Of a DNA stretch of 64,000 nucleotides, positions 1-33,866 are shown piece after piece. Below the pieces are notes generated by a model. The model was given only the letters and a program-made list of their open reading frames with translations. It did no database searches and was not told where the DNA came from. The position numbers and the translations under genes were made by a program. This DNA comes from Elusimicrobiota bacterium (GTDB taxonomy: Bacteria; Elusimicrobiota; Elusimicrobia; F11): NCBI GenBank assembly GCA_044221725.1, contig JBGAON010000002.1, forward strand, positions 160,001-224,000, in the 5' to 3' direction. Position 1 is the first letter of the stretch. Each line of letters starts with the position of its first letter.

Positions 1-2729
1 CCGGCGCCAAATTTTCTTCCGTTGGCGGCGGCGATTTGCGCGTCAAGGTGGTTCGAGAGATCTCCGAGCGCTTTCAATGCTTTTTGAATTTCTTGGTTGT
101 CGATCGCGATTTTCTTCGAGGCCTCTTTGATTTCGTTGACGGCGGCGGCCGTTGACGCATCGGTCACGAGCACGTTCCGGGCAAGAACGGCATTTGCAGC
201 AGAAGTATTTGTTTGTGCCGGAACAGGTGATTCGTCCGCGCTCGCGGATGCCAGTGGCAGCCAATCGCCCAGACGTTTAGCCAAGCCACTATTTGATTGG
301 CGCAGGCCAAGCACCAGGCGGTTGTATCCCATGTGAATTCCAATCCCAACAAAAAGTCCACCGATGGCGGTAAGATTCTTTTGAGTCTCTGAAAGATCCG
401 CCATGAGCGAGGGAAGCGCCAGCGGAAGCGACAACAGCGACCCTATCACCGCCATCAAGAAAATCTTTTGACCCACGGTGGCTTTTCGATGCACCAATCC
501 AAAAACAATGTTCGCAGCGATCGCGATAGCACCCATGGTCATGGTGTTGGGGCCAGCCGCTACATGGACGGCGAGCGGCAATTGGAAGATCCATTCCCAG
601 AACGGCGCACCGGCAAGTGGACGTTGGGCCCACGAAAACAATGGTTTCGCTGCCGTTGGGTTTTCCGTGGTGTTTTGCGTTTCACTTTCGGTCCGCTTCA
701 CTGTGTCGTACAACTGTTGGGGTACGAGAATTGCTCCAATTGTTTTTGTCCAAAATGTCCCTGGGAATAGTTTTGTGATCGTTAAAACGTGCTCACGGAA
801 GAGCAGTAGTTTTTCTTTGAACGTAAACTTTGCGGTGATGTCGTCACGTGTCGGATCGGTTTTGTCGAGGATATTTATGCGGAACGTGAGTCGACGTTGA
901 CCGATGCGCCAAGGAAATGTATCGACGCCAAGCAGGCGTGCACTCAAGCTTCCGAAGGTGCGGATGTGTGTGGCCACGCTGTTCTGGTCTTCGGGGGCTA
1001 CGAAAAGTTTTTCGCCCTGAACTAGTTTTTCGATGGGGGTTTTTTCGCGCGCGAAGACCGTGAGATAAGCGCTTCCGGAGGCGTTATCAATCTTGGTGAT
1101 CTTGGGCGAAACCACGACGTAGGGGATTTTCTTTTCGCGGAGGCGTTGCGTAAAGAGAGGCGTGTGGAAACCGCCTACGACGAGCCCCTTCACCGGATGG
1201 GCTTCGCCCATCGCCTCTCTCCCAATGGACGGCGCTGGAGGAAAGGGATTCTCTTTTAAAAGGTTCGCGAGCATTCTCTCGGTGCGGAGGTCCGCTTGTT
1301 CGTAGAAGCTTTCGAAAGGTTTTAAAAAGGTACTTCGTGCAGTGTCCTTCGTCCCTCGTCTCTGGTATTCGTTAATCGAATTCGTCGTGCGACGTACGCT
1401 GTACGAAGCACGAAGTACCTTTTTGTAGTTCTCCCATTCTTTAGCTGTCAGCGAAAACTCCACAAGTTTCTTCGTGAGTGCCACGTGCTCGCTTTCGGCG
1501 AGCAGCTGTTGTTCGCTGCCCGTTTTTGCGATTTCTTTTTTTAGCGCGGTCTCGAGCGCGTCAATCTCGTCGAAGAGTGTGTCGGCTTTGATGCTGTCGG
1601 TGAGCAACACGTAGCGCAGATAATTTTCAAATACGGGTGTCTCGCGAAGATTGATTCCTTTTTTCTCGCAGAGATTGCGGAGATTTCCGTAGTACCGTCC
1701 GAACGTCAACCGGCCGGACCGATACGCCACGCTTTGAGCGAGCAAATCGGACGTTTCGTTTTCACTGAGCGTTGCCGCTAGTTTTTTTAATGTTCGGTTT
1801 CGTTCGACTTCGATTCTCGGTAAATCCAGCGTCCGTTCCATCTGAAACGCTTCAAGAAAACGTGCCACGGTGGACAAAGGCGATGGTTCTTTTATTTCGG
1901 CCAGCTTGCTGAGATAGGTGCCGAGGCCTATCTGTTCGGCGTGATAGGCCGCTTGTATTTCGTCGAACCGTTGCAGCGAGGGAGAAAACACTTTCTTTTT
2001 CTGTTCAACGAGTTCGGTTTCTGCGCGGGCGATTTCTTTAAGTGCCGATTTCTTTATCGAGCGGGAATCCAGGTAGGCTTGTACGTTCGCGTCGTAATGT
2101 TCGCGGTCATCAACGCCAAACCAATCAAGGGTTTTTTCGGCGTTTGTGATGCCAGTGAATGTCGGCGCCGCCATGACGTTTTGATTCAGATAAGACTCGG
2201 CTATTTGTCGCACAGCGGGTTTATCGACGAACTTCCGAAATGCGGAGAAATCCATTTCTCCGAACGCGCCTTCCACGCCGATGCGAGCGGCCAATTTTTC
2301 ATCAATGAGCGTTTGCAGCGTGGCCGCGATATTCGCTTGCGCTTCGCTGTTCATGTGAATATCTTGAACGATGACAATCGGGGTTTTGAGCTGGGTTTTG
2401 TCGCTCGTCGAGTTGGGGAAAACCTCCTGGATCGTTGAAGGCGTCAGAGAGAGCGCTTCAATTACGGGCTTAATTGCAGCGGGCAACTTCTCAAAGCGGG
2501 GTTCCAGTGATGGCTTTAATGTCGGAATTGAAGGAAGGGATGCTCCGATAGCTGAAAAACGCTGCGAGATCGGCGCGCTCGGTGAGAGAGCCGCGTATTG
2601 CGCGGACTGCGCTTTCTTCCGTTCGGACCAAATACTGATTTCGGGCTGACTTCCCAGCGCGATTTGCGTTGTGAAATAAACCAAACAAAGACTGCCAGAA
2701 ATGATTTTTTTAACGGAGGGGACTGTCAC
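1..2729 (-). CDS. Large secreted/membrane protein, 3'-truncated by the window edge (>=909 aa): signal peptide + TraB/Tiki/EreA/ChaN-like domain + degenerate CPBP(Abi)-like TM bundle + unseen C-terminus
   Basis: Not in the ORF track because it has no stop in the window. I translated it by hand from GTG at 2729 (in-frame TAA at 2754-2756 upstream): VTVPSVKKIISGSLCLVYFTTQIALG..PIVIVQDIHMNSEAQANIA..IGVEGAFGEMDF..FYEQADLRTERMLANL..LVVGGFHT..APFWEWIFQ..VFGLVH..IHMGYN..QIAAANGRKFGA. The same frame is open at every point checked. Clear paralogue of 30363-33866. Confidence 0.88.
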   Translation of the reverse strand, partial: MTVPSVKKIISGSLCLVYFTTQIALGSQPEISIWSERKKAQSAQYAALSPSAPISQRFSAIGASLPSIPTLKPSLEPRFEKLPAAIKPVIEALSLTPSTIQEVFPNSTSDKTQLKTPIVIVQDIHMNSEAQANIAATLQTLIDEKLAARIGVEGAFGEMDFSAFRKFVDKPAVRQIAESYLNQNVMAAPTFTGITNAEKTLDWFGVDDREHYDANVQAYLDSRSIKKSALKEIARAETELVEQKKKVFSPSLQRFDEIQAAYHAEQIGLGTYLSKLAEIKEPSPLSTVARFLEAFQMERTLDLPRIEVERNRTLKKLAATLSENETSDLLAQSVAYRSGRLTFGRYYGNLRNLCEKKGINLRETPVFENYLRYVLLTDSIKADTLFDEIDALETALKKEIAKTGSEQQLLAESEHVALTKKLVEFSLTAKEWENYKKVLRASYSVRRTTNSINEYQRRGTKDTARSTFLKPFESFYEQADLRTERMLANLLKENPFPPAPSIGREAMGEAHPVKGLVVGGFHTPLFTQRLREKKIPYVVVSPKITKIDNASGSAYLTVFAREKTPIEKLVQGEKLFVAPEDQNSVATHIRTFGSLSARLLGVDTFPWRIGQRRLTFRINILDKTDPTRDDITAKFTFKEKLLLFREHVLTITKLFPGTFWTKTIGAILVPQQLYDTVKRTESETQNTTENPTAAKPLFSWAQRPLAGAPFWEWIFQLPLAVHVAAGPNTMTMGAIAIAANIVFGLVHRKATVGQKIFLMAVIGSLLSLPLALPSLMADLSETQKNLTAIGGLFVGIGIHMGYNRLVLGLRQSNSGLAKRLGDWLPLASASADESPVPAQTNTSAANAVLARNVLVTDASTAAAVNEIKEASKKIAIDNQEIQKALKALGDLSNHLDAQIAAANGRKFGA
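1185..1247. repeat. REP-like palindromic element (CCCTCTCCC..GGGAGAGG..GGTGAGGG type) inside the CDS
   Basis: Minus strand reads CCCTTTCCTCC-N13-GGGAGAGAGG-cGATGGGC GAA GCCCATCc-GGTGAAGGGG. There is a perfect 7-bp hairpin at 1196-1212. It resembles the intergenic element at 39480-39562. Confidence 0.6.
1324..1424. repeat. 101-bp hairpin with perfect 17-bp terminal inverted repeats and internal heptamer periodicity, inside the CDS
   Basis: aaaaaggtacttcgtgc (1324-1340) pairs with gcacgaagtaccttttt (1408-1424). Inner units: tacttcg tgcagtg tccttcg tccctcg ... cgacgta cgctgta cgaagca cgaagta. Confidence 0.8.
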
Positions 2730-2752
2730 TTCCTTATAATAAGGCAGGTTCC

Positions 2753-2791
2753 CTTAAGATCGCCTTTAGGGGGGATTAAGTTTCCCTTAAG
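2753..2791 (-). promoter_or_regulatory. Phased 11-bp direct-repeat array, OmpR-family (PmrA/BasR-like) binding site candidate
   Basis: Plus-strand hexamers cttaag 2753, ctttag 2764, attaag 2775 and cttaag 2786 have an exact 11-bp period. The minus strand reads CTTAAG-GGAAA-CTTAAT. The array lies 24-62 bp upstream of the GTG at 2729. Confidence 0.5.
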
Positions 2792-2855
2792 GTTCTCGGC
2801 GGACAATCGGTACATTGTACCGCCGCCTTATCGATACTTCCGATCTACGTGTTAA

Positions 2856-5800
2856 TTACGCTGCTTTGCGCGTCTGTTGCGAGATGTTTTCGAGTTCGGT
2901 GCGCAGTTCGTGTTTTTCGTTTTGCACGCGGCGCAATTGTTCGTCCATGATGCTTTGCTGACGCATGAACTCTTGCGTGATGACTTCGACCCGTTTCGTG
3001 AGGTCCTTGCGCGCCTCTTCGAGTTCGCGTTTCCGAACTTCGCCTTCTTCCACGAGTCGATCGTACTCGGCTTTTTGATTGTCGAGTTGCAGTTGTTTGT
3101 TCTGCATTTCGGACATCGTTTTCTCGACTTGCACGGTCATCTCGTGCTGCTTCGCGAGATATTTGCGTTGGAGTTCTTCTTCTTTTTGCGTGAACGAGGC
3201 TTGCACTTCGTTCATACGCGCCATGAGCTTCATTCGCATGTCGGTCGCTTCTTCCAGCCAGTGTTGGCGCGCGGTCGCGAACTCCGCTTCCTTTTCTGCC
3301 ATCTGCTTGCGCGCTTTCTCCGCAATTTCGTTTACGCGGTTCTCAAAACGCGACGGCCATTCGATTTCAACGCTCTTCTTGTAGCCTTCGAATTCTTTTT
3401 CGCGTTGCGCGAGCGCGGCCAACAGCGCTTCTTCTTTCTTTCGATAAGATTCGCGCAGCATATCGGCTTCCTCTTGGGCCCGCAGCTTTGCGTTCTCGAG
3501 GGCGGCCAATGTTTCTTCGTGCTCTTTGCCCCAACGTCCCTTCTGTTGCTCGACCTGCTGCATCCGGGCGAGATTTTCTTTTTCGAGGCGGTCGAGATCG
3601 GCTTTGTAGCGTTTCTCGAGTTGGTCGAGCGCCGCCTGTTTTTCGAAAATCATTTTCTGGCGCGCGGCTTCGTCCTCTTCCAATTTTTTCTGGGAACGCG
3701 TGTTGCGTTCGTGCCACAGCTGCTCTTGCTCAGCCGCGCGGTTGCGCAAAGTCTCTTCCATTTGTTGATACATGGAGCGCTGCTCTTCTTCTATTTTCTT
3801 TCTCATTTCGTCAGAGATCGCGGAAAGATGACGGCGTTCCTGTTCAATGCTTACTTCGAACGCCTTTCGTTCCGCGGCCAAGCGCTGGAACGCATCTTGT
3901 TTTTCTTGGTTAAGCGCCTGTTGTTTGCCGCGGAGTTCGGCTTCTTTTTCTTGGACTTCGACGAGAAGCGCGCGTTTCAGATCTTGGAAGGATTTCTCGC
4001 GCTCGGCTTCTTTTTGTTGAGCGGATTCTTCGAGTTCGGTGGCACGTTTTTTCCAAAGCTCTTCCAATTCCTTCGCGAGGTCGCGGTGGGATTGTTCGGC
4101 TTTCATTTCCCAGTTCTTCTGCTCCATCGTGATGCGAGCGCGAAGATCTTTTTCAAATTTCTCCATCTGTTCCGTATCTCGAAGCATAGTCTCCTCCCAA
4201 GCATTCTTATTCTGCTGAAATTGAGCATGCAACCCGCGCTCGAGCGCCGCCAACCGTTCTTCTTCCTTTCGGCTGCGGAGCTCCATTGCTTCTTCCTTCA
4301 TTTTAACGGCCGCAAGATCGGAATCAAGTTGCGCTTTTCTTTTTTCCCAGTCGCTTTGCTCGCGCGCCAGCAGTTGTTGTTTCTCGTGATAGGTACGCTC
4401 GAGCTCGGCCTGTTTGCTTTCGTACATGCGGGCCAACTGTTTGCGTTCTTCTTCGGTAATTTGCTCCAGTTCTTCGGTACGCCTCTTGAGACGCTCTTCC
4501 ACTTCGGCGGTACGCCGACGGAACGATTCCTCAAACTGCGCTTCCAAATCTTTCTTTTCGCTGGCGAGCTTGCTGCGCAGTTCGCTTTCGGCGAGCGCTA
4601 ACCGCTGTTTTTCGTCGGCAACAAACCGACCGAAGACTTCCTGCTCCACTTTGGCTTTCTCGCGCAGTTCTTTCTCTATGAGCTCGACGCGTTGCTTATC
4701 GGTCTCCTGGTGTTCCTTCATGAGCCGATATTCTGACTCGGCTTTTGCGCGCAGTTCCTCTTCGAGCGCTTCAATGCGGCGTTTTTCGACATCCGCTTTG
4801 TTTTGAAGCATGCGGCGCTCGTTCGCCAAAGATTCGAGACTCGCCGATTTCGCCAATTCCCATTGTTGTTTTTCGAGAATCAGTTGCGCTTCTTTCGCAC
4901 CAAAGTCCTTTTCGAGATCATTGAATTTGGTTTCGTACATTCGCTGTTTCTGGGAAAGCAATTCGTCTGCCTGTTTGTCGAGCTGAGCCATTTTCGCGGC
5001 TTCTTTTTCCAGCAACACCTTCTCTGCTTCGACAAAGCGGTCTTGCAGCGTGCGTTCTTGTTGCGCGAGACGGAACTTTAGCTCGTTTTCTTTGTCGAGA
5101 AGCTCTTGGTCCTTTTGCTTGCGGAACGTTTCAAAATGGGCTTTCGCCTCCTCAATAATCATGCGCTGATTGTCGAGGTCGATTTGGGCGCGGTCGCGCT
5201 GATTGTTCCACTCTTGAACCGCCATCGCGCGTCGGCTTTCTTCCAGTGCCATTTTCGATTCGAGTTCCACGCGGCGCGCATGGAACGTCTTCTCCAAATC
5301 GGCCTGTTGTTCGCGCAGCGCTTCCTCCGCGCGCACTTGCAACCGCGCTTGCTCGCGCGTCATTTTGTCGCGGAAGGCCCGCTCCTCGTTGGCCAGTTGC
5401 TGATATTGCGCATCCACCTTCGCTTGCTGCGCCACGCGTTCTTCTTCCATGCGGCGCTGCGCTTCGGTTTCCATGAGTTCGAGCCGCTGAGAAACTTCCT
5501 CCGCGCGTTGTTGCAAAAGCGCTTTCTCGTTCTCCACTTTGACCATTAAATCTTTCTCGAGCAAATCAAGTCGGTCGCGGTCTTCCCGTGTTTTGTCGAG
5601 CCAAATCTTTTGTTCTTCCTCGGCTTTTGTCTGAATCTGTCGTTCCATATCCTGCAGTTTTTTCTGGTCCGCTTTCATTTGAGCATCCCACATTTCTTTT
5701 TCTTGACGAATGCGGGACATCACGTCGGCCTGCTCTTTCTGGAGCGCCTCGCGTTTCTGCTGGATTTCGATATCAAGAGTTTTGCGTTCTTTCTCGAGCG

Positions 5801-7601
5801 CCCGTGCCGCCTCGGCGCGCTGCGCTTCCCAGTCTTGCCGTTCCATTAATAAGGAATGTTCTTTTTCGGCGTACGAACGTTCGTGTTCCTTCTTTAATGC
5901 CGAGAGTGTGCGTTCGCGCTGCTCTTCGTTCTGTTTGAACGTCGATTCGAGCAGATGGCCGCGCTCGGCCAGCTGCGTTTCGAGTTGATGGGTTTGTTTT
6001 TGGTATTCGGCATTGAGTTTTGCTTCAAAATCTCGGTGTTCCTGAAGCGCTTTCTCTCGAAGATTGGATTCGAGCGCCGCCACGGAAGATTGCAGCGTTG
6101 CCTCTTTGCGTTTCAGTTCCTCTGATTTGGCCTGGAATTCGGCTTCCAGCGCCGAAAGCTTCAAATTAAATTCTTCGGTTAACTTTTCTCGTAGCGTGCG
6201 CTCACTGGTGACCAAACGCTGTTTGTCGATTTCGCCTTTTGTCTCGAGCGCTTTGCGATCGGCTTCAAAGGCCTGTAGCGCACGCGCCTTTTCAGCGTCC
6301 CATTGTTGGCGGTCGAGATACAGGCGGTTCTCTTTGTCTTCGAAGATTTTTTCGAGCGAGATTTTGCGTTGGCGAAATTCGGTTTCACGTTCGGCATCTT
6401 TTTGAGCGGAGCGTTGGTCCCAATCCAGTTTCGTTTTCTCGAATGCCGACTCTTTGGCGTACCACGCATCTTTTAACTCGGTTTCTTTGCGGGCGAAGTC
6501 TTCGCTTAAGATTCGTTGTCTTTCCAGATGTTCTTGTAACAGCGCATGGCCACGGTCGATCAGCTCTTTTTCCATCGCCTGTTCTTTGACGGTCAGTTCA
6601 TGGAAACGGGCGGACGCTTCGCGTTGCGCGGTTTCACGCTCCACTTGCAGCGCTTCGATCGCTTTCTGTCGATCGGATTCGAAACGCGCACGGTCGGCGT
6701 CTGTCTCGGCGGTTTTTCGCTGCGCAATTTCTTCAATTGCTTGGCGACGCATGACGAGTTCCCGCTCGACACCGGCATTTTGCTCGGCCATCTGGCGGCG
6801 CTCTTTCTCAAAATCTCTTTGCAGTTCCCGGCGGCTCTGCTCAACTTCGAGCAACCACTGTCCGCGTTGTTTGTCGAGCTCGTCCTTCTTTGTTTGATAG
6901 CGGCGTTCGGCCTCTGCTTCGATCGAAGCGCGGTCTCGTTGCATTTGAAGACCGTATTGGTTTAGGCGTTCTTGGAGTTCGCGTTCCTTTTGCAGAATTT
7001 GGTCCTGCGCCATGGCGAGCCGAGTCGTGAAATCTTCTTGGAGCTGTTTGACCTTTTCGTTGTACATCCGCTGTATGTTCGGCTCAACGCCGACAAGCTT
7101 TTCACGAAGCGAAACAATTTCTTGCTCTTTCAGCCGCACGTGTTCGGCGAGTTCAAGCCGCTCGCGGTCAATGCGTGCCAATTCGTTTTCCGCTTTTTGT
7201 AGGTTTTCTTCTTGAAGCGACTTATGGCGGCCAAGTTGCAACAAATCGTGTTCGAGCCCGATCACTTTGTCTTGCAGTTGTTTCTTCGCATCGGCTTCTT
7301 GCGGTGCGAATTTTTTCCAGAGCTGCTCCATCGAGGCGCCCATGAGGCCGCGATATTCTTCGAGCAGCTGAGTGGTCTTTGCGGAAATTTCTTTTTCGTT
7401 TAGTGAGACCGTCGATTGATGAGCGAGTTCTTTTGAGAGGCGGGAGGATTCTTCTTCCTTGAGAATGAGTCGGTTTGACATCCGCTGGACTTCATCGTCC
7501 AATTGGCGGATTTTCTCGAGGGACCAGCGAAGGGCCAATTTCGCTGTGGACAAATCATTCACTTCTTCTGCTTGATAGTTCCTGATATCATCCGAGCTCA
7601 T
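2856..7601 (-). CDS. Giant coiled-coil protein (~1581 aa), function unknown
   Basis: ORF track 2856..7694. The ATG at 7601 (MSSDDIRNYQ) is preferred because the upstream part is AT-rich intergenic-like sequence. Extremely E/K/R/Q/L-rich, with no Walker A motif and no TM segment. Confidence 0.9.
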   Translation of the reverse strand: MSSDDIRNYQAEEVNDLSTAKLALRWSLEKIRQLDDEVQRMSNRLILKEEESSRLSKELAHQSTVSLNEKEISAKTTQLLEEYRGLMGASMEQLWKKFAPQEADAKKQLQDKVIGLEHDLLQLGRHKSLQEENLQKAENELARIDRERLELAEHVRLKEQEIVSLREKLVGVEPNIQRMYNEKVKQLQEDFTTRLAMAQDQILQKERELQERLNQYGLQMQRDRASIEAEAERRYQTKKDELDKQRGQWLLEVEQSRRELQRDFEKERRQMAEQNAGVERELVMRRQAIEEIAQRKTAETDADRARFESDRQKAIEALQVERETAQREASARFHELTVKEQAMEKELIDRGHALLQEHLERQRILSEDFARKETELKDAWYAKESAFEKTKLDWDQRSAQKDAERETEFRQRKISLEKIFEDKENRLYLDRQQWDAEKARALQAFEADRKALETKGEIDKQRLVTSERTLREKLTEEFNLKLSALEAEFQAKSEELKRKEATLQSSVAALESNLREKALQEHRDFEAKLNAEYQKQTHQLETQLAERGHLLESTFKQNEEQRERTLSALKKEHERSYAEKEHSLLMERQDWEAQRAEAARALEKERKTLDIEIQQKREALQKEQADVMSRIRQEKEMWDAQMKADQKKLQDMERQIQTKAEEEQKIWLDKTREDRDRLDLLEKDLMVKVENEKALLQQRAEEVSQRLELMETEAQRRMEEERVAQQAKVDAQYQQLANEERAFRDKMTREQARLQVRAEEALREQQADLEKTFHARRVELESKMALEESRRAMAVQEWNNQRDRAQIDLDNQRMIIEEAKAHFETFRKQKDQELLDKENELKFRLAQQERTLQDRFVEAEKVLLEKEAAKMAQLDKQADELLSQKQRMYETKFNDLEKDFGAKEAQLILEKQQWELAKSASLESLANERRMLQNKADVEKRRIEALEEELRAKAESEYRLMKEHQETDKQRVELIEKELREKAKVEQEVFGRFVADEKQRLALAESELRSKLASEKKDLEAQFEESFRRRTAEVEERLKRRTEELEQITEEERKQLARMYESKQAELERTYHEKQQLLAREQSDWEKRKAQLDSDLAAVKMKEEAMELRSRKEEERLAALERGLHAQFQQNKNAWEETMLRDTEQMEKFEKDLRARITMEQKNWEMKAEQSHRDLAKELEELWKKRATELEESAQQKEAEREKSFQDLKRALLVEVQEKEAELRGKQQALNQEKQDAFQRLAAERKAFEVSIEQERRHLSAISDEMRKKIEEEQRSMYQQMEETLRNRAAEQEQLWHERNTRSQKKLEEDEAARQKMIFEKQAALDQLEKRYKADLDRLEKENLARMQQVEQQKGRWGKEHEETLAALENAKLRAQEEADMLRESYRKKEEALLAALAQREKEFEGYKKSVEIEWPSRFENRVNEIAEKARKQMAEKEAEFATARQHWLEEATDMRMKLMARMNEVQASFTQKEEELQRKYLAKQHEMTVQVEKTMSEMQNKQLQLDNQKAEYDRLVEEGEVRKRELEEARKDLTKRVEVITQEFMRQQSIMDEQLRRVQNEKHELRTELENISQQTRKAA

Positions 7602-7721
7602 AATTGAGGCAAGGATAAGAGGAGTTTTCTTGAAAAACCATTTCTTTCTTAATTTGTTTTTAGAAGTATGAATTGGGTTGATTTTACGACGCAATCGGAG
7701 GCTTTTTTAGAGTGTTAATTT

Positions 7722-8363
7722 ATGTCGTTGCTCATTGAACAAGAGATTCCTTGCACGCATTGCCAATATCCGAACGAAGTGGAAGTTTGGTCGGCGATCA
7801 ATGTGAAAACAGACCCCGAGCTCAAAGATTTGTTGCTCGGCGGCGAGATTAATATGGCCGAATGCGCCTCGTGCAAAGAGATTTTCTACGCCGAGCACTT
7901 CCTTTTGTATCACGATCCCCAGTTTGAGCTGATGGCGTTTGTGTATCCTCACACGTACACCGACGAACGAGACCGCTGGAAGCAAAAAACCGCCGAGGAC
8001 TACGCTGCGTCGCAAAGCAATTTGCCGGAAAACGAAAGGTTATCGTACCCGCCCATCACGCTGTTCGGACTGGATCAGCTTGTTTTCCTTGTCGAAGATG
8101 AAGAGGAAAACGAAATTCAGGGAGAAATTATTACGCTCTACACGCCGGGCAACGGATTTAAAGTCCGCGCGTTGACGCACGCGGTGGCGCGGCAGCAGAA
8201 CATCCCACGGTTTGTTCCTTATCTTGAAACGAGCCAAGCTCCAACGCGAGATTCGGTGCTCGGTGCGCTCGAGAAGATTCGAGCCCTAAACGATCGTCTG
8301 TACGTTTACGGTAAATTTGAAGAGACGCTGCGCGGAAATCCGTCCTGGGGTCTTGCGAATTGA
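7722..8363 (+). CDS. CpXC domain-containing protein (two CxxC)
   Basis: CTHC..W.AIN..DPELK..L.G.IN...CASC...FLLYHDP pattern typical of the CpXC family. Confidence 0.75.
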   Translation: MSLLIEQEIPCTHCQYPNEVEVWSAINVKTDPELKDLLLGGEINMAECASCKEIFYAEHFLLYHDPQFELMAFVYPHTYTDERDRWKQKTAEDYAASQSNLPENERLSYPPITLFGLDQLVFLVEDEEENEIQGEIITLYTPGNGFKVRALTHAVARQQNIPRFVPYLETSQAPTRDSVLGALEKIRALNDRLYVYGKFEETLRGNPSWGLAN

Positions 8364-9999: not shown

Positions 10000-10007
10000 A
10001 GGAATCC

Positions 10008-24768: not shown

Positions 24769-24807
24769 GAATCAAAAATCCGAGTCAAAAAACCGAATCA
24801 AAATCCG
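24769..24807 (+). repeat. Short tandem direct repeat (~13 bp x3) upstream of polA
   Basis: aatcaaaaatccg agtcaaaaaaccg aatcaaaatccg. Confidence 0.55.
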
Positions 24808-24813
24808 AAAAAT

Positions 24814-27513
24814 ATGCCCAAGTTGTGTCTGTTTGATGCCAGTGGTTACATCCATCGAGCGTTTCACGCCATTCCGCCGCTCAACACGTCGAAAGGTGAG
24901 CCCGTGAACGCTGTGTACGGCTTTTCGCGCATGATCACGAAAGTGCTCAAGGAAGAAAAGCCCGAGTACATGGCGGTTTGCTTCGATACCGCCGCGCCCA
25001 CGTTCCGACACGAACAATTTGTTGATTACAAAGCCACGCGCGCCGAGATCGACTCCGCCCTTTTACCGCAGCTTCCGTTATCCGAACAGCTGGCCGTTGC
25101 GTGGGGCCTGCCGTGCGTAAAGAAAGACGGCTACGAAGCGGATGATGTGATCGCGACATTGGCTCTCCAGGGGCGCGACGCTGGCATGGATGTCCTCATC
25201 CTCAGTGGTGACAAAGATATTTTGCAGCTTGTTGAGAAAAATATTCATGTCCGCGATGAAATCAAGAAAGTCGAATACGATGAAACAAAAGTGTTTGAGC
25301 GTTATGGTTTTCGGCCGGACCAGATTGTCGACTATCTGTGTTTGCTGGGCGACAAAGTGGACAACGTGCCGGGCGTTCCAGGGGTTGGAGAAAAAACGGC
25401 GGCGAAACTGATCGTTGAACACGGTTCTCTCGAGGAAATTTACAAAGCAATCGATTCTAACTCGGCGTCCCTTAAAGAAAAGTTGCTAGCCAACAAAGAG
25501 CGTGTTTTTGGAAATCGGGATTTGATTCGATTAAAGACCGACGTCCCGCTCGAGAAGTCTTTGAGCGAGATGCAAATGATGACGCCCGATTCGCCGACGC
25601 TTTCGACATTGTTAACCCGCCTGGAATTTCGCGGCGGTCTTTACGGTGTTTCCGATGAGGTGGCGGAGCCCACGCTCAAAGAAAACAAAAGAAGAAAAGT
25701 CCATACCGTTTTGACGGAAGACCAGCTAGGTTTGTTGAAGGACAAGTTAGCGAAAGCCGACCGTGTGTCCTACGACTTGGAAACGGATGGTCTGAACAAG
25801 CGACTCTGCGGAATTGTGGGTGTTGCCATCTGTGTGGAAGAAAACGAATCGTGGTACATTCCGGTCGCCCACGCCTACATTGGTGCTCCGCAGCAGCTCC
25901 CGTGGAAAAAGATTTCCGACGTTATTAAGCCCGTTTTAGAAAACCCGAAGGTTCCGAAGTGTGGGCAAAACCTCAAATTTGATAATGCAATTCTTTCTTG
26001 CCAACAAATTAATGTTCAAGGACCAGCGTTCGATACGATGATCGCAGCCTATTGCATTGATCCCGGCCGTCTGAGCTTTGGTTTAAAGGACCTTGCGGCC
26101 GATTTCCTGCAAGAACGAATGACGCGGATCACGGAACTGTTCGGAAAGAAAGCACAGCCAAACTTTGCGGAAGTGCCGATCGAAAGCGCGGCGCCGTACG
26201 CCGCCGCGGACGCCGAAGTGGTGTTCCGCCTCGTCGACCTGTTCAATAAGAAGCTGGACACCGAGCACGCGCGCGCGTTGTTTGAAAATCTCGAAATGCC
26301 GCTCGTCGAAATCATCCAGGATATGGAAATGGCTGGGATTGCGATCAACCGGAAATACTTGGAAGGTATTCGGTCTGATTTTGAAAAGGAGCGGCTCGCG
26401 ATTGAAGCGGAGATTTACAAACTTGCGGGAGAAGAATTCGTATTAAATTCACCGAAGCAGCTGGCGCGGATTTTGTTTGAAAAACTGAAATTGCCGGCCA
26501 TTAAGAAGACGAAAACCGGCTACTCAACAGACGAAGACGTTCTCACGAAATTATCGAAGGACAACCCTATCTGCGAAAAGATTATTGGCGCGCGCGAGCT
26601 TGCCAAATTGATTTCAACCTATGTTGACTCGTTGCTGAACTTGGCCGATCCGAAGACCGGCCGCGTTCACACGTCATTTAATCAGACGGGCACCGTTACC
26701 GGGCGATTAAGCTCCACGGATCCCAATCTCCAAAATATTCCGGTTCGTACCGAACGCGGCCGCTTGATCCGCCGCGCGTTTGTGGCGGAGCCCGGAAATG
26801 TTTTGTTGTCGGCCGATTACAGCCAAGTGGATCTGCGGTCGCTCGCCCACATGTCGGAAGATCCGGTGCTGATTCGCACGTTCCAGGCGGGGGGAGATGT
26901 TCACACGGCCACCGCCGCCGAGATGTTTCATGTGGAGGCAAAAGACGTCACGACCGACATGCGCCGCAGCGCGAAAGCCATTAACTTTGGCATCGTGTAC
27001 GGCCAGCAGGCCTTTGCGCTCTCTCAAAGTCTTGGGATTCCGCTCGAGACCGCCAAAGAATTTATTGCGAAATATTTTGAGCGTTACGCGGGCGTGCGGG
27101 CTTGGATCGACAGGACATTGGCCGAGGCGCGAAAGAATCTTTATGTGACCACTCTCGCCGGTCGCCGTCGGCGCGTGGCCGACATCAATGCGTCAAACGC
27201 TTTCACGCGCGGTTTTGCGGAGCGCGTTGCCATGAATACTCCGATTCAAGGAACGTCGGCGGACATTATTAAGTTTGCGATGATTCGCATCTTCGATGAT
27301 CTCAAGAAAAAGAAGTTGAAGACACGTATGTTGTTGCAGGTTCACGATGAACTTCTGTTTGAATGCCCGAAGAGCGAGTTGTCCGAAGCGGCAGCGCTCA
27401 TCCGTGCGGGAATGGAAAACGCATTTATGCTCAAGGTGCCTCTCGTGGCGGAAATGAAGATTGGCGAGAATTGGAACGACATGGAAAAAATGAAACAAGC
27501 GGTGGCCGCATGA
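24814..27513 (+). CDS. polA: DNA polymerase I (5'-3' exo, 3'-5' exo, polymerase)
   Basis: YEADDVIATL, SGDKD, DNVPGVPGVGEKTA, DLET, TGRLSSTDPNLQNIP, DYSQVDLR, KAINFGIVYG, QVHDEL. Confidence 0.97.
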   Translation: MPKLCLFDASGYIHRAFHAIPPLNTSKGEPVNAVYGFSRMITKVLKEEKPEYMAVCFDTAAPTFRHEQFVDYKATRAEIDSALLPQLPLSEQLAVAWGLPCVKKDGYEADDVIATLALQGRDAGMDVLILSGDKDILQLVEKNIHVRDEIKKVEYDETKVFERYGFRPDQIVDYLCLLGDKVDNVPGVPGVGEKTAAKLIVEHGSLEEIYKAIDSNSASLKEKLLANKERVFGNRDLIRLKTDVPLEKSLSEMQMMTPDSPTLSTLLTRLEFRGGLYGVSDEVAEPTLKENKRRKVHTVLTEDQLGLLKDKLAKADRVSYDLETDGLNKRLCGIVGVAICVEENESWYIPVAHAYIGAPQQLPWKKISDVIKPVLENPKVPKCGQNLKFDNAILSCQQINVQGPAFDTMIAAYCIDPGRLSFGLKDLAADFLQERMTRITELFGKKAQPNFAEVPIESAAPYAAADAEVVFRLVDLFNKKLDTEHARALFENLEMPLVEIIQDMEMAGIAINRKYLEGIRSDFEKERLAIEAEIYKLAGEEFVLNSPKQLARILFEKLKLPAIKKTKTGYSTDEDVLTKLSKDNPICEKIIGARELAKLISTYVDSLLNLADPKTGRVHTSFNQTGTVTGRLSSTDPNLQNIPVRTERGRLIRRAFVAEPGNVLLSADYSQVDLRSLAHMSEDPVLIRTFQAGGDVHTATAAEMFHVEAKDVTTDMRRSAKAINFGIVYGQQAFALSQSLGIPLETAKEFIAKYFERYAGVRAWIDRTLAEARKNLYVTTLAGRRRRVADINASNAFTRGFAERVAMNTPIQGTSADIIKFAMIRIFDDLKKKKLKTRMLLQVHDELLFECPKSELSEAAALIRAGMENAFMLKVPLVAEMKIGENWNDMEKMKQAVAA

Positions 27514-28319
27514 GTGTTTTCCGCGGAGCGAATCCGTTCGATCAACTCACGCCCGGCGTAAAAGGGCTCGTCATCGCGAATGTGGCGGTATTTCTGCTGC
27601 AGATGGTGTTCCGCGGAATGCTCGAGCCCGTGTTAGGCCTTACGCCGGTGTTGGTTGTTACGAAGTATTGGGTTTGGCAGATTCTTACGTACGCTTTTCT
27701 GCATGGCAACGGATGGCATTTGTTTTTCAATATGTTTGCGTTGTGGATGTTTGCGCCGCATGTCGAAGCGAATTTCGGGACAAAGCCGTTTCTTAAATAT
27801 TATTTTCTGTGCGCGTTCGGCGCCGCGTTTTTTCAATTTTTGCTGGCCCCGACGTCGCTCGTGATCGGCGCTTCGGGTGCGATCTACGGTTTGTTGCTGG
27901 CGTTTGGTTTTATGTTCCCTGATGCTGTGATCTATTTGTTCTTCGTGTTTCCGTTGCGAGCAATTCAAGCGGTGATGTTCATTGCGCTATTGACGCTCGT
28001 TTCGGCCATGAGCACCGGGGGCGAACGCATCGCGAACTTTGCGCACTTGGGCGGAATGGTGACCGGATTTATTTATTTTAAGGCGCCGCAGTGGTTTCGA
28101 AACCTGCGCTTGTGGCAAGCGGATCGCCGCTTTCGCAATCCGTTGGGCCGTCGATCAAAAGCCCGCACGCCGATCACCGAATTTGTTGTTCATGATCCTG
28201 CCGATGACATGATTAAAGAAGTGGACCGGATTCTTGAGAAGATCTCCGCACAAGGCGTGGACAGCTTGACCAAAGAAGAACACGAAACGATGCGCAAATA
28301 TTCGGAACGTAAGAAGTGA
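27510..28319 (+). CDS. Rhomboid intramembrane serine protease with C-terminal helical (DUF6576-like) tail
   Basis: HLFFNM, GASGA, AHLGG; VDRILEKISAQG.DSLT.EE tail; ATG overlapping the polA stop. Confidence 0.9.
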   Translation: MSVFRGANPFDQLTPGVKGLVIANVAVFLLQMVFRGMLEPVLGLTPVLVVTKYWVWQILTYAFLHGNGWHLFFNMFALWMFAPHVEANFGTKPFLKYYFLCAFGAAFFQFLLAPTSLVIGASGAIYGLLLAFGFMFPDAVIYLFFVFPLRAIQAVMFIALLTLVSAMSTGGERIANFAHLGGMVTGFIYFKAPQWFRNLRLWQADRRFRNPLGRRSKARTPITEFVVHDPADDMIKEVDRILEKISAQGVDSLTKEEHETMRKYSERKK

Positions 28320-28951
28320 GTGTCGTTTCGAAAGCCGTTCGACGAAAAGTTTTTGAGAATTGGAAGTTGGTGTTGGGACTCACCGGTGGTATCGGCAGTG
28401 GAAAGTCAACGGTTCTCGCAATGTTTAAGGACAAAGGTGCGTTTACGTTGGACGCCGATCGGATTGTCCATGATTTGCTTGAGAAAAATCGATTGGTGAG
28501 ACACGCCATCAAACAAAGGTTTGGTACCTCTGTTTTTGATGCCGCCGGAGTTTTGAACAAGCGCGAGCTCGCATCGGTGGTGTTTGATTCGAAAGCGAAA
28601 CGCCGGACGTTGGAAGCCATTTTGCATCCGCGGGTGCGCGCAGCGATGTGGAACGCGCTCGTGGAGCGCCGCGGCAATGTTGCGGTTCTCGATATTCCGC
28701 TTTTGTATGAATCGAAGTGGCAAGCCGATCTTGATGGCGTTATCGTTGTAGATGCATCGCTCAAAAAACGAGTGGCTCGACTGGTAAAGAAAGGCTTCTC
28801 CGTATCGGAAGCAGCGAAGCGCATTCGCGCACAAATGAATTTGGATGAAAAGGTCCGTTTGGCCGATTTTGTTATCGACAACAACGGAACGATCATCAAC
28901 ACAAAAACACAAGTGAACACAATTTGGAACTCACTTCACGGAGGCTCGTAA
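28316..28951 (+). CDS. coaE: Dephospho-CoA kinase
   Basis: [32 protein letters not shown]. Confidence 0.95.
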
Positions 28952-30351
28952 TGGAATCGCAGCAGGAACAAAAAGATAAGGAATCAACACACGACGCAAA
29001 AAAAGGGGAAACCGCGACGAACGTAACGGCCACCCCCGCCGCTCCCGCGACGCCACCCCAACAAGTAAACACCACGCTTCAAGACGCGAAAAATCATCTT
29101 GATGCGGCCGTGCTCGCGAAGATGCATTTGGGGGAGCTCATTAAGATTGCACACGACGCAAAAGTGGAAAACGTCGCCGGGCTCCGCAAACAGGCTCTGA
29201 TTGCGCGCATTCTCGAAGCGCGCGCTAAAGATACCGGAATTATTCTTGGCGAAGGTGTGCTGGAGATTTTGCCCGACGGTTTCGGTTTCCTCCGGTCGCC
29301 CGAATACAATTATCTTCCCGGCCCGGACGATATTTATGTTTCACCATCGCAGATTAAAAAGTTTGCTTTGCGCAAAGGCGATACCGTCGCCGGGCAAGTG
29401 CGCCCGCCGAAAGATCAGGAACGATTTTTTGCGCTGCTGCAAGTTCGACACGTGAACCAGGAAGCCGTCGAGAAACTTCGTTCGCGTCAATTGTTCGATA
29501 ATTTGACGCCGTTGTACGCGCAGAAACGCATTCGTCTAGAAACGAAGAAAGAAGACCTCAATACGCGCGTGCTCGATCTGATTGCTCCGATCGGTATGGG
29601 TCAACGCGGCGTCATTGTCGCTCCACCGCGAACCGGTAAAACCATTTTTCTTCAGAAAATGGCGAACGCGGTGACCACAAATTTTCCGGACACGGTTCTC
29701 ATTGTGCTGTTGATCGACGAGCGCCCCGAAGAAGTGACAGACATGCAACGCTCCGTGAAAGGGGAAGTCATTTCCTCAACGTTCGATGAGCCCGCCGACC
29801 GTCACGTTCAGGTTGCCGAAATGGTCATCGAGAAAGCAAAACGGCTCGTCGAAATGAAAAAAGATGTGGTGATCTTGCTCGACTCGATCACGCGTCTCGC
29901 GCGTGCTTACAACACGGTCACACCGTCCAGCGGTCGCGTGTTGTCCGGCGGGTTGGACTCCAACGCGCTGCAACGTCCGAAGCGTTTCTTTGGCGCTGCT
30001 CGCAACATTGAGGAAGGCGGAAGTTTGACCATTCTTGCCACCGCGCTTGTTGAAACCGGTTCCCGTATGGACGACGTTATCTTTGAAGAATTCAAAGGTA
30101 CGGGTAACATGGAAGTGTACTTGGACCGGAAGTTGGCGGATCGCCGCATCTTCCCAGCGATCGACATTACGCGCTCGGGAACGCGCAAAGAAGAGTTGCT
30201 GCTCACGCCGGAGGAACTTAACAAGGTTTGGATTCTGCGCAAAGTCCTGTCGTCACTCAATCCGATCGAGGCGATGGAATTGTTGCTTGAGAAACTGAGC
30301 GCCACCAAGTCCAATAAAGACTTCTTGAAGTCGATGGAAGTTTCGGGCTAG
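28951..30351 (+). CDS. rho: Transcription termination factor Rho
   Basis: [57 protein letters not shown]-terminal extension. Confidence 0.98.
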
Positions 30352-30362
30352 CTGGAGACGTT

Positions 30363-33300
30363 TTATCCGGCGCTGCCGACGGTGCGGAGGTCGGGCGTCG
30401 GCGCGTACGGAGTTGCCGGCGCTGGTGTCTCGGTCGCTGGTAGCGGAGTTTCCAGTATCAGTTCGATTTCCTCCGCTGGGACGAGTTCAACCTCGGGTGG
30501 CAGATTATCAACCAGCCCAGGTGGTTGCGAACCTCGTTTGAATTCGCGCATCGCGCGCAGTGCTTCTTTAACATTCCTGCCGTTGTAGGTATCGACGAAA
30601 AGTCGAAACTTCTTGGGCAATGTTTGCTCCGGATTGTCCGGATCTTTCACGGTCACGTTGTATTCCATGCGAACACCATTTTCGAGAAGCCGCGCTTTCG
30701 TTCGATCAACGACCGCTCTTTCAAGTTTGGCAGTGGGACCGAACACAAAAAATGTAGAGCCGCGCGTGTGATAGAACTCGAAGCTTTCTCGTGGAAGTCC
30801 TTCTTCTGACGCTACTTCATCAATGGCTTCTCGAATCGATCGGCCGAATGTTTTGATCAATTCGGTTCCGGCCGCCTGAAGGCCTGGTGCGTGTTTGTTC
30901 ACGAGTCCAAAATTTATCAAGTCGATGATCGTGCAAGGCTGGTCGTCTTTCTTTTTTAACTTCAAGTAAAGCGCCTTAAATCCCTTGGCTCCTGGCACAA
31001 GTTCGTCTTCCATGGCCATTTTCATGTTGCCGTCCGCGTCCCGAAGGATTTCGTGATATTCCGGAAGAATCAGTTTAACCATGGCCAACCGTAGGCGCTC
31101 CAGTGGTGTGTCGGCCCGAAGATCGTGATCCGCTGAATCGTCTGGCGCGGCGGGCGTTTGGAATTTATGAAAATCGGCGTTTAACTTTCTTAAGCGAGGC
31201 TCGTTCGAGCTGGACATGAATTCCGTCGGCATGCGGTTTTTGCGGATGGCCTTTCGTTGGACGGCGCTTTGGTTTGCTTCAAGATCCGTTTTTCCAATGC
31301 CACCGCTTATAGAAACATAAAACTTCTCTTTGAATTGGCCGTCGGAATGCAGAGCGTGAAATTCATGGACACCGAACGCCGATTCCGTCACCGTTAAGAT
31401 ATTCTCAGAATCGTTTTTGTGGCAAACGATGGCGAACTCGTCGCCGCCAATACGAAAAATGTACGGTTGGATGGGGCGGTTCGGATTTACGTGGCGCGCG
31501 TGTCGAAGCGCCACGCCGATTTTTTTTATTAAGAGGTCGCCTTCGTCCCACCCGCGCTCCGTCTCGTTGTTTACGCGTTTGAAGTTGTTTGCATCGTAGA
31601 TGATAACGCGGGTATCGTTGCCGAACGGTTGTTTGCGCAGGATCGTTTGATAGGCCTGAGCGTTACCGAGCCCGGTGTCGGGATCGGTGGTGGCAAAACG
31701 CAGCCACTCATCGCGTCGGTTCGTGGCAAGCTCCAATCGGAACGTCATATCCGGGTAGAAAACTTGCACCACCCATGCGCGGAACCATTCGGGCAGGATC
31801 GCGCGATTTTCTCCTTTCTGCTCGGGCATGAACAGAAATGAGGAAACATCGAGCAGCGCATGGCCTATGGCGGCTGTGATAATAACAGCGCCCGCGTTGA
31901 CTCCAATATTCGATAGCACAACGGCCAATCCGAACGGAATCGCCGAAATGACGGAAGATGAAAAGAAGAACAACCAGAACAGTCGCGAGCGCATCAGCGA
32001 ATAGTGTCGCGGCAAAAAAGAACGGTATGCGATGGCGTTGAGAACCGATATGCGAAAAATATTAGCGGTGTTGATGAGCGTCCAGACGAGCAGTGCTACC
32101 GGCACGCCGACCGTGGCGGAGAAATTGTTTAGCTGAAGAGCCAAAAACGTGCCGAGCGCCGCAACGTAAGAAAAATAAAAAATACGCCAACCCCATGTAT
32201 TCGAATCCAGCGGTCGCACGGAAACAGTGACAAGCGCTTGTTTGCGCGAACTCCATCGGAACACGCCGCCGAGATGAAGCAGCGTAAGGGCGGCCCATGC
32301 TGCGTATGTGAGGAGCGTCGAGAAGTTGTTCTCTTTGGCGAGAGCCGCGAGCTTGCCGTTTATTGCTCCTTCAATGAGACCCGCTGCCGCAAGAACAACA
32401 ATTCCAGCAATGACATCAATGCCCCGTTTCGATAGCAGTGGTTTTCCGTCGTAACGAATGGCCTTAAGAACGCGGCGCGCAAACAACAGCGGATACTGGA
32501 ACAAGGCGGCCGCTGCCGCCGGCGTAACGACCGCTGGGGCGAGTGTGTGGGGTTGCTCTGCGTTGCCCAATTCATCCGCCAGCAACGCCTCCGTGGTGGC
32601 TTGGGCAAGGGGGAAATCGGTGCCCACCGCCGCCACGCGCGCATCGCTCAAGTATTGCTTTCCCCGGAAAAAGTAAGTGTTGAAATCCGTTGCACCGCTA
32701 TCAAAGGCCGACAGGTAGGCGGTTGGAGATAATTTTTCGGTGATGTTTGAAACCTTTGGCGCTAAGACGGTCGTTATGATCCCGCGTTCCCGCAGCAGTT
32801 TGACGAGGTGCGGCGTGTGAAATCCGCCGGCCACAAGAGCGGCCGTGTTTCCGGCGGTATTCGTTCGAAGAAGGTTTTCAAGCATCTGTTCACTGCGGCG
32901 GTCCGCGAAGCGATAAAAATCTTCGAAATTGGTGAACTGGGCGGGCTCTGTTCGCAATGCTTTGTATTGGCCCCATTCTCGCGGGGTGAGCTCAAAGCGA
33001 ATGAGTTTTTCGATCAGATAAAGACGATCGCCCTGAGCGAGCAGCGCGCGCTGTTCGTCTGTTTTCGACAATGCGTTCATCGCCGTGCGCTCGATGGTGT
33101 CCGATTCCATAAACAGGGCCTCAATGTCGACGGAATTTATTATCTGCAGGTAATGTCGGTAAATTCCCTGCGCGGGACGCCGAGCGTCAAGAAGACTTTT
33201 TACGTGCTCCTCCAATTCCGAGGCCATCACGAATCGTCGAAGATTGTTACTTTGCGTCTTTGTCAGTCGAGCAAGCGTCTTTAAATACTCACCAAATGAA

Positions 33301-33866
33301 ATTTCACCGGCTCGGTATCGCTCGCGAAGATCATCAAATCGTCTGAGGGCTCCATGAAACGTCGCTTTTTTGTTCAGGAAAAGCAGTTCGCGTTCGATGG
33401 CCAATTTCCTTAATGCGTTTGGTTGTTGGCGTTTCGCTTTCATGTACGCGTTCACGTTGCGCCCGTAGCTTTCTTGGTCGTCCACGCCCACGGTGCGGAC
33501 GGCGCTTTTCTCTCGGGTGATGCCGACGTAGGTGGGGGCTGAGATTCGATTGGCTTTCAGAAATTTTTCGGCGGATACCAATCGATTGGTTCTTGGAAAA
33601 GCACGAAACGCATTGAAATCAAACGGACCGAAAGCGCCTTCAACGCCGACCAGTTTAATGCTTTTGTCGTCGGCTAGCTTGTTTAGTATCGATGCGATTT
33701 CTTTTTGGGCGACCGCGTTTCTGTGAATGTCGCGTATCAAATAAATATGGAGCTGCCCGCGTGGGCTGCTCGTCGCATCGGATGCCGCGATCAAAGCAGG
33801 TTCAACCGCCAAAATAAGGCCCAGGGTTGCCGCCACCGCCCCTCGAAAATACGCGTATATCTTCAC
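30363..33866 (-). CDS. Large membrane signalling protein: signal peptide + TraB/Tiki/EreA/ChaN-like domain + TM bundle + GGDEF (intact) + GGDEF (degenerate)
   Basis: RDIH, VGVEGAFG, DRRSEQMLENL, AGGFHT; multiple hydrophobic segments; DPDTGLGN..YDANNFKRVN..GD..FRIGGDEF (31434-31448); second copy IIDLINFGLVN..TRGSTF. Confidence 0.88.
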   Translation of the reverse strand: MKIYAYFRGAVAATLGLILAVEPALIAASDATSSPRGQLHIYLIRDIHRNAVAQKEIASILNKLADDKSIKLVGVEGAFGPFDFNAFRAFPRTNRLVSAEKFLKANRISAPTYVGITREKSAVRTVGVDDQESYGRNVNAYMKAKRQQPNALRKLAIERELLFLNKKATFHGALRRFDDLRERYRAGEISFGEYLKTLARLTKTQSNNLRRFVMASELEEHVKSLLDARRPAQGIYRHYLQIINSVDIEALFMESDTIERTAMNALSKTDEQRALLAQGDRLYLIEKLIRFELTPREWGQYKALRTEPAQFTNFEDFYRFADRRSEQMLENLLRTNTAGNTAALVAGGFHTPHLVKLLRERGIITTVLAPKVSNITEKLSPTAYLSAFDSGATDFNTYFFRGKQYLSDARVAAVGTDFPLAQATTEALLADELGNAEQPHTLAPAVVTPAAAAALFQYPLLFARRVLKAIRYDGKPLLSKRGIDVIAGIVVLAAAGLIEGAINGKLAALAKENNFSTLLTYAAWAALTLLHLGGVFRWSSRKQALVTVSVRPLDSNTWGWRIFYFSYVAALGTFLALQLNNFSATVGVPVALLVWTLINTANIFRISVLNAIAYRSFLPRHYSLMRSRLFWLFFFSSSVISAIPFGLAVVLSNIGVNAGAVIITAAIGHALLDVSSFLFMPEQKGENRAILPEWFRAWVVQVFYPDMTFRLELATNRRDEWLRFATTDPDTGLGNAQAYQTILRKQPFGNDTRVIIYDANNFKRVNNETERGWDEGDLLIKKIGVALRHARHVNPNRPIQPYIFRIGGDEFAIVCHKNDSENILTVTESAFGVHEFHALHSDGQFKEKFYVSISGGIGKTDLEANQSAVQRKAIRKNRMPTEFMSSSNEPRLRKLNADFHKFQTPAAPDDSADHDLRADTPLERLRLAMVKLILPEYHEILRDADGNMKMAMEDELVPGAKGFKALYLKLKKKDDQPCTIIDLINFGLVNKHAPGLQAAGTELIKTFGRSIREAIDEVASEEGLPRESFEFYHTRGSTFFVFGPTAKLERAVVDRTKARLLENGVRMEYNVTVKDPDNPEQTLPKKFRLFVDTYNGRNVKEALRAMREFKRGSQPPGLVDNLPPEVELVPAEEIELILETPLPATETPAPATPYAPTPDLRTVGSAG

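Follow-up and report, generated by a model that had tools for sequence, protein, structure and literature searches.

A large family of long exported Elusimicrobiota proteins with a TIKI-type head, and a candidate tag on head-less partners

Two described systems are among the closest to the proteins considered here. The Archaeovorin-type giants of Omnitrophota resemble them in having a signal peptide, many membrane helices and shuffled enzymes of cytosolic type (accessible parts of bioRxiv 10.1101/2023.11.21.568195 and 10.64898/2026.06.07.730766). As far as the accessible part of the first of these preprints goes, the N-termini of giant proteins generally carry no identifiable domains, and their cleavage points are unknown. 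Polymorphic toxins (PVC metallopeptidase, PrsW type; available portion of PMC3482391) and MARTX share with our proteins a constant N-terminal hydrolase, variable cargo, multi-cargo chains and a CPBP-related membrane peptidase module. Giant proteins have also been noted in Elusimicrobiota, with no domains assigned in the available portions of the reports (PMC11573180, PMC12057145). Here we analyze two genes in a 64,000-nucleotide stretch of an Elusimicrobiota genome (the window; G000:C4:160001-224000, in a genome, G000, of 2.82 Mb in 5 contigs), which had been proposed to encode paralogous membrane receptors. They belong to a sizeable family, so far without annotation, of long bacterial proteins that are exported and start with the same enzyme-like head. 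New here are a stand-alone secreted form of that head in three distant genomes and an L-[AR]-x-P tag on dozens of head-less secreted proteins.

The shared head and its family

Both open reading frames (ORFs) lie on the minus strand, gene 1 at <1-2729 and gene 2 at 30363-33866, as originally predicted, and every motif pair that they had been said to share was located in their translations. Their N-terminal regions are identical at 143 of 456 positions (31%; BLASTP E of 7e-57). Lengths below are in amino acids (aa).

1..2729, minus strand: gene 1, represented by its initial 909 codons; the complete gene, G000:C4:150088-162729, encodes 4,213 aa
2753..2790, minus strand: upstream element of gene 1, a four-fold TTA(C/A) repeat with an 11-bp period, then a -10-like box
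2652..2729, minus strand: gene 1 signal peptide, with a basic n-region, a hydrophobic stretch and small residues at the likely cleavage site
1014..2651, minus strand: gene 1 TIKI/ChaN/EreA-like head, with a large helical insertion; D123, H125, Q131, E153, R482, H522
2349-2366, 2259-2282, 1272-1307 and 1161-1178, minus strand: gene 1 head motifs QDIHMN, IGVEGAFG, FYEQADLRTERM and VGGFHT
993..1013, minus strand: gene 1 junction, EKLFVAP, similar to the L-[AR]-x-P tag of head-less cargoes in other genomes; the family consensus is F-x-G-E-K-L-F-L-A-P-x-P
177..668, minus strand: gene 1, first of its Rce1/CPBP-like four-helix modules (PxxE, FxxxH, HxxxN)
30363..33866, minus strand: gene 2, 1,167 aa, ending ...TVGSAG, convergent with rho
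33889..33926, minus strand: upstream element of gene 2, a four-fold repeat and a -10-like box
33780..33866, minus strand: putative gene 2 signal peptide
32661..33779, minus strand: gene 2 head, in which the helical insertion is shorter; D46, H48, Q54, E76, R324, H350
33717-33734, 33627-33650, 32883-32918 and 32814-32831, minus strand: gene 2 head motifs RDIHRN, VGVEGAFG, FYRFADRRSEQM and AGGFHT
32535..32660, minus strand: degenerate gene 2 junction KQYLSD, with a TLAP motif 37 residues on
31827..32420, minus strand: six marginal hydrophobic helices of gene 2, whose likeness to Rce1 is by eye only; motifs E (GLIEG), LTLLH and HALLD
31278..31691, minus strand: gene 2 GGDEF domain (residues 726-863, Pfam E of 1.8e-9), GGDEF motif intact
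30567..31019, minus strand: probable second, degenerate GGDEF-like domain of gene 2 (RGSTF), without a Pfam hit

The shared domain had been placed in the TIKI/TraB/EreA/ChaN superfamily, and matches of the structure model, together with the order of its residues, bear this out. The predicted head has a parallel beta-sheet core flanked by helices that matches ChaN, Ere and RRSP, and comparison of the predicted fold with EreA/ChaN-type structures returned the TIKI fold class, the closest matches being the heme binder ChaN (PDB 2g5g) and esterases. The catalytic-type residues are intact, with D123-x-H125, E153, R482 and H522 invariant, and these two histidines, two acidic residues and one arginine keep the order and spacing of RRSP and Ere (reference spacing from PMC6254334). 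In the model they follow strands 91-96, 120-125 and 486-492, and such strand-end positions are consistent with a shared pocket. The head motif GGFH, likewise invariant, aligns with GNGH of ChaN. We consider it very probable that the head has the TIKI fold and likely that it is an active enzyme.

Existing family models scarcely reach the head. The ChaN model (PF04187) matched 14 of the 26 heads of G000 at an E of ≤1, the best at 5.6e-8, and a single one passed the gathering cutoff, on a partial stretch; true ChaN proteins of the phylum score 173 to 204 bits. Since the Pfam gathering score is not reached over the domain, membership in the ChaN family was rejected, as was membership in TraB/PrgY/GumN (PF01963; 1 of 26 heads, E of 0.004). 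No Ere family match of the heads appeared among the 25 families listed of 26, and no NCBIfam model matched any of five heads tested at an E of ≤0.01. The nearest ESM Atlas clusters (0.90 to 0.91) are unnamed and commonest in Omnitrophota, only a lead that the giants of that phylum may carry the same head.

The expectation of further paralogues with different bodies was borne out by 26 members in G000 with a constant head. Either window head as phmmer query retrieved this same set from 9,013 ORFs, and a profile of the 26 heads found no further members in that genome below an E of 0.8. The proteins are 775 to 8,862 aa long, and the head is in every case the leading domain, preceded by a segment that resembles a signal peptide in charge and hydropathy; in gene 1 a conserved W-x-E-R-[RK] motif directly follows the signal peptide. 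The head profile matched 9,848 clusters (50% identity) at an E of ≤0.001. From the best 80 of 380 confirmed matches, 75 loci from named genomes were kept, all labeled Elusimicrobia/Elusimicrobiota or "Candidatus Obscuribacterium magneticum." Heads were matched in 80 of 301 genomes of the phylum Elusimicrobiota, with a patchy spread by family (4/4 in f1, 6/6 in f10, 46/70 in f17, 0/92 in f7, 0/30 in f11 and 0/32 in f13).

Family genes share traits at both ends. A terminal alanine is present in 21 of the 26 paralogues, gene 2 being one of the five without it, versus 141 of 1,379 other genes of ≥250 aa (P of 2e-16), and also in 21 of 33 complete related ORFs. The four-fold upstream repeat precedes 21 of 26 family genes versus 25 of 1,919 others (up to 3 mismatches), a contrast that is partly built in, the consensus having been drawn from 8 members. 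The repeat also precedes other genes for large secreted proteins. The -10-like box lies about 6 nucleotides ahead of the start codon in many family genes (window positions 2730-2790 and 33867-33926), which suggests leaderless transcripts. No neighboring gene family recurs beyond 5 of the 75 loci; one 18-locus neighbor cluster is, by position, an antisense frame over the head gene.

Several observations concern unusual members and possible relations. Genomes of 0.9 to 1.3 Mb (G064:C16 and G027:C13, L117 and L118; genus g64) retain head-bearing frames of 5,900 to 8,300 aa. At a guess from size and rank, family f17 may be Endomicrobiaceae, which live as symbionts of termite-gut protists. Two apparently identical head-bearing genes stand in opposite orientation on one contig (L075 and L076), with similar twins in G006, and reflect either duplication or an assembly artifact. 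An 8,369-aa protein of G000 (C5:256705-281814; L024/L025) has a family-like signal peptide and ends in ...SQA, without a head or module match and with no Pfam hit in its first 2,764 aa. Genus g18, which lacks this head, has tandem frames of 370 to 520 aa with weak matches to the N-terminal ChaN motif (G158:C19, G132:C6 and C11, G088:C7), possibly a second expanded TIKI-like family.

The split form and the candidate tag

In three genomes of three families, in other classes (G023, G024 and G028), the head stands alone as a protein of 559 to 613 aa with nothing behind it (e.g., G023:C79:15849-17531 and G028:C40). The profile of the four-helix membrane module had no match in these three genomes, and a later profile matched one cargo. 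G024 has a further head fragment at a contig end, and G023:C37 (L160:1599-4423) has a third head, split over two frames and running on into further sequence to the contig end. Beside the stand-alone heads are head-less proteins in which a similar signal peptide is followed by L-R-P-P, L-R-A-P or L-A-P-P. When ten of these N-termini (8 from G023, 2 from G024) were made into a profile, it matched, at an E of ≤1, 28 places in G023, 9 in G024, 20 in the unseeded G028, 2 in G017 and none in G071. On reading, L-[AT]-P-P stood right behind the signal peptide in all 11 of the 20 G028 matches that were read, in 4 of 6 unseeded G024 matches and in neither of the 2 from G017. Across the 301 genomes, with at most 21 candidates scored per genome, 25 had matches at an E of ≤0.001, with at least 4 matches only in G023, G024 and G028 and none in G000; matches outside those three genomes mostly cover the signal peptide alone.

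A motif-based filter on the fetched loci, which is not an independent count, yielded 42 head-less tagged proteins (21 from G023, 15 from G028 and 6 from G024). A signal peptide and no predicted helix were found in 25 of the 42, and 28 of the 35 complete ones have serine or alanine in the penultimate position. Four share regions with fused family members. Pfam hits were obtained in 9 of 33 scanned, including transketolase, PGI, iPGM plus enolase, PFOR, PGM and SecA-DEAD, and one further tagged cargo is TPI plus FBA. Two secreted proteins of 380 to 490 aa also lie beside stand-alone heads (L102:9209-10690 and L104:9454-10599); they have no tag and end in a tail-like helix.

The fused proteins of the G000 lineage carry F-x-G-E-K-L-F-L-A-P-x-P directly after the head (216 of 224 covered), and the stand-alone heads end just short of this FLAP junction. 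Taken together with the tagged cargoes, this implies that signal-head-FLAP-cargo in one lineage corresponds to signal-head plus signal-FLAPP-cargo in the others. From such a complementary pattern we lean toward a functional link between head and tag.

Cargo, membrane modules and topology

Gene 1 had been read as a membrane bundle with a tail running off the window. It does extend to the left of the window, but the complete protein carries, behind its head, five four-helix modules, a coiled coil, WD40 propellers (residues about 2100-2600) and an HExxH motif, and ends in ...VLQSA. The zincin-like motif is HEGRH at residue 3037; it lies between modules 3 and 4, in sequence without annotation. The plural GGDEF domains attributed to gene 2 hold for one Pfam-positive domain, in which no RxxD inhibitory site was found by eye; in the second, RGSTF replaces GGDEF (by eye).

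Cargo was recognized by Pfam in 13 of the 26 paralogues, the other 13 having no hit at an E of ≤1e-4. It comprises WD40 (two paralogues), GGDEF, hexokinase plus GH18, phosphorylase, glycogen synthase, PP2C plus FHA, HD plus adenylate kinase plus DHQ synthase, 2-hydroxyacid dehydrogenase, adenylate kinase, sigma-70 plus protein kinase, beta-CASP and PRK/uridine kinase. Signaling-type domains occur in four of the 26 (GGDEF, kinase plus sigma-70, PP2C plus FHA, and HD). An ordinary homolog was present elsewhere in G000 for 7 of 10 cargoes tested; the adenylate kinase, hexokinase and PRK segments had none at 1e-5.

The membrane bundles had been called CPBP-like, and module motifs and Pfam support a CPBP/Rce1-like nature for the four-helix modules; the gene 2 bundle is Rce1-like by eye only, and its six helices are unmatched by the module profile. 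Searching with an iterated profile located 98 modules, spread over 59 of the 226 proteins. Of these modules, 78 retain all of PxxE, FxxxH and HxxxN/D; across the 98, the first E is conserved in 90%, the H of FxxxH in 92%, the H of HxxxN in 99% and the N/D in 97%. We take these four residues to be the Rce1 catalytic set. The modules resemble CPBP/Rce1 intramembrane glutamic proteases (PF02517; MmRce1 and the myxosortase MrtX, available portion of PMC11980579) in the helix-1 E, FxxxH and HxxxN. They differ in being a four-helix core only, repeated within one chain, in an R[AG]PP loop and in having P-x-x-E in place of EExxxR, one of two motifs named for Rce1 and myxosortase in the same source; a second E is present in 19 of 98, with no conserved R. 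Pfam Rce1-like models matched 5 of 46 modules (best E of 7.9e-7), and the structure model gave four helices with a predicted local distance difference test score of 75, for which structure searches returned generic bundles only. R[AG]PP is enriched in module loop 2 (e.g., gene 1 residues 1358 and 2748), and RGPP was counted 27 times in family bodies and never in the 794,000 residues encoded by other genes. Behind module helix 4 comes a (W/L)P-x-A-S motif. Either motif could be a cut site.

Segments rich in lysine and arginine tend to be cytosolic (the positive-inside rule). Module flanks and loop 2 have 0.12 to 0.14 lysine or arginine per residue, versus 0.025 in loops 1 and 3, and loop 2 exceeds loops 1 and 3 combined in 85 of 98 modules; by that rule, both flanks of a module would be cytosolic. 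Between the head and what follows, no helix is predicted up to the first module of gene 1, none up to the cargo in C3:791181 (kinase; 775 aa, G000:C3:791181-793508) and C4:575445 (HD), and six up to the GGDEF domain of gene 2, where residues 443-466, moderately hydrophobic with basic residues after, may form a seventh. These counts come from simple hydrophobicity scales that under-call polar helices, so single-protein counts are soft. Head and cargo appear to share one compartment, though the head follows a signal peptide.

Genes 1 and 2 are separated by housekeeping genes and both run antisense to them, so the two are not parts of one operon. Immediately 5' to gene 1, a gene of the same strand (window positions 2856-7694, minus strand) encodes a 1,612-aa protein that is nearly all coiled coil, ends in ...RKAA and has no Pfam hit.

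Proposed function and comparison with described systems

The analysis itself establishes homology, fold class, residue invariance, architecture, the fused and split distribution, the tag and the upstream co-regulation motif. Beyond these, we tentatively propose that the head processes tagged cargo, in cis or in trans, for export, perhaps into another cell. Such a system would have two parts. The first would be a secreted TIKI-fold hydrolase, the head; the second would be a cargo chain that opens with the (F)-L-[AR]-x-P tag, continues with cytosol-type enzymes, which Rce1-like four-helix modules often staple, and closes with a helix whose terminal residues are small. In the G000 lineage each cargo has its own head in cis, and in the three distant lineages the head is a separate gene and would serve chains of the form signal peptide-LAPP/LRPP-cargo. 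The signal peptide would export the chain through Sec, and the head would recognize the tag and cut the chain by hydrolysis there or close by, so that the cargo is freed or matured; of the chemical steps, this is the most uncertain. The next step would be transfer of the cargo, plausibly via secretin machinery, into a compartment that offers ATP, GTP and sugar phosphates; the simplest candidate is the cytosol of a host or prey cell. At that destination the modules would span a membrane, leaving both flanks in the cytosol, and might make further cuts in the chain. Secretins were found in all 5 genomes tested, including one without heads; the FHIPEP export gate was not found in the same 5. A destination in another cell is suggested by the cargo chemistry and by the 7 of 10 cargoes that duplicate ordinary G000 genes, and we hold it as a guess somewhat short of an even chance. 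Proteolysis is favored by the residue invariance and by analogy with the constant N-terminal peptidases of polymorphic toxins (available portion of PMC3482391), and we hold it just as provisionally.

The complementary pattern has as its basis three genomes and a likeness of four residues. Several head-less cargoes have mature chains that open with the tag, which suits recognition or modification better than release. This would fit a head that is linked to the tag as an export escort, or as an esterase or transacylase acting on the cargo N-terminus or on a cell-envelope substrate at a contact point. The fused and split pattern fits such a role equally well, and the closest head structures are a heme binder and esterases, yet a pure escort would have no need of five invariant catalytic-type residues. 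One head per cargo in the fused lineages is, moreover, the arrangement of polymorphic-toxin autoprocessing peptidases (same portion of PMC3482391), and we judge the escort or transacylase role unlikely.

Slightly less likely again are membrane-tethered enzyme scaffolds in the producer's own inner membrane, with the cargo cytoplasmic and the head outside via one missed helix, or with an N-terminal signal that is not a Sec signal. Such scaffolds are listed for Omnitrophota giants in the accessible part of bioRxiv 2026.06.07.730766. They would account for the basic flanks and loop 2 (85 of 98 modules), for a hydrophobic helix directly after the junction in some paralogues and for cargoes that require ATP, GTP or NAD. 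However, gene 1, C3:791181 and C4:575445 lack such a helix, 25 of the 42 head-less cargoes are helix-free behind their signal peptide, and for many cargoes an ordinary counterpart exists in the same genome.

The original prediction, a receptor whose ectodomain senses or cleaves an outside ligand and whose bundle relays this to a variable cytoplasmic output such as GGDEF, has become improbable. Gene 2, with its signal peptide, head, membrane bundle, intact GGDEF and possible seventh helix, comes nearest to it, and signaling-type domains are found in four of 26 paralogues, but recognized cargoes are mostly metabolic enzymes or repeats, chains reach 8,862 aa with many modules, and module flanks lie on the same side. 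Helix counts between sensor and output are even rather than odd (0, 0, 6 and four-helix modules), gene 2 possibly excepted, some members are helix-free, and stand-alone heads have no membrane part. The alternative wording of that prediction, "effector," is a better fit than "signal-transducing."

We know of no substrate outside a cytosol for the sigma-70, beta-CASP nuclease, protein kinase, adenylate kinase, GGDEF and SecA-like cargoes, and their presence makes it equally improbable that the proteins are surface or periplasmic multi-enzyme scaffolds that pre-process prey-released sugars outside the cell, as suggested for Archaeovorins (accessible part of bioRxiv 2023.11.21.568195), even with signal peptides throughout and many sugar-metabolism cargoes.

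At its broadest, processing by the head could amount to a phylum-spanning delivery system in which a TIKI protease matures F-L-[AR]-x-P chains and dozens of metabolic and regulatory enzymes are placed in the cytosol of a host or prey to re-route metabolism, not to poison it. Among the enzymes so installed would be hexokinase, glycogen synthase, transketolase, a sigma factor and diguanylate cyclase, stapled by self-cleaving Rce1-like modules. We think both the system and this installed set doubtful. If true, the system would explain which enzyme processes the giant proteins of Elusimicrobiota and Omnitrophota, where they are cut and what they are for. A constant catalytic-type head, a candidate tag, natural stand-alone heads of 560 aa and tagged partners of 200 to 500 aa make this a tractable two-protein problem. 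With 9,848 clusters and no curated model, the family also marks a wide gap in annotation and adds a new branch to the TIKI hydrolases.

The original remark that no characterized system with this architecture was known stands, in that literature searches, with subscription papers outside their scope, found no description of one. The main text of bioRxiv 2023.11.21.568195 does not mention TraB, EreA or erythromycin, and that of bioRxiv 2026.06.07.730766 does not mention TraB, EreA, Tiki, Rce1, motif, cleav- or polyprotein; the TIKI head, the Rce1-like module and the tag are unnamed in both main texts, and the supplements may hold domain tables. Among TIKI superfamily members (ChaN, erythromycin esterases and BcR135/136 [6xcq, 2rad, 2qgm], TraB/PrgY/GumN, HopBA1, and the RRSP and PMT C2 domains), the head has the familiar parallel beta-sheet core, an acidic-x-His after strand 1, a Glu 30 residues on, an Arg and a late-strand His. 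It is unlike them in having Asp for Glu in the first motif, a helical insertion of 100 to 250 residues, GGFH, and a position always right behind a signal peptide, heading long chains or standing alone. Polymorphic toxin systems were rejected as a home for the family, there being no recurrent adjacent immunity or secretion gene at the 75 loci and no toxin families among the cargoes. In contrast to polymorphic toxins and MARTX, the cargoes here are mostly enzymes of central metabolism and regulation rather than known toxin domains, there is a split form with a tag, and the TIKI domain, an effector in MARTX, is the head. The Archaeovorins, Omnitrophota proteins of at least 30,000 aa with GT, hydrolase, HEAT and SecA-DEAD domains, were likewise rejected as the parent family: the G000 proteins are mostly 0.8 to 9 kaa with relatives in Elusimicrobia, and there are about 26 copies per genome versus one giant. 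The cargo types nevertheless overlap, and GT5, GGDEF, TPI, FBA, PGM, PPDK, SecA-DEAD and HEAT are held in common with the Omnitrophota giants, as far as the accessible parts of the two preprints describe them.

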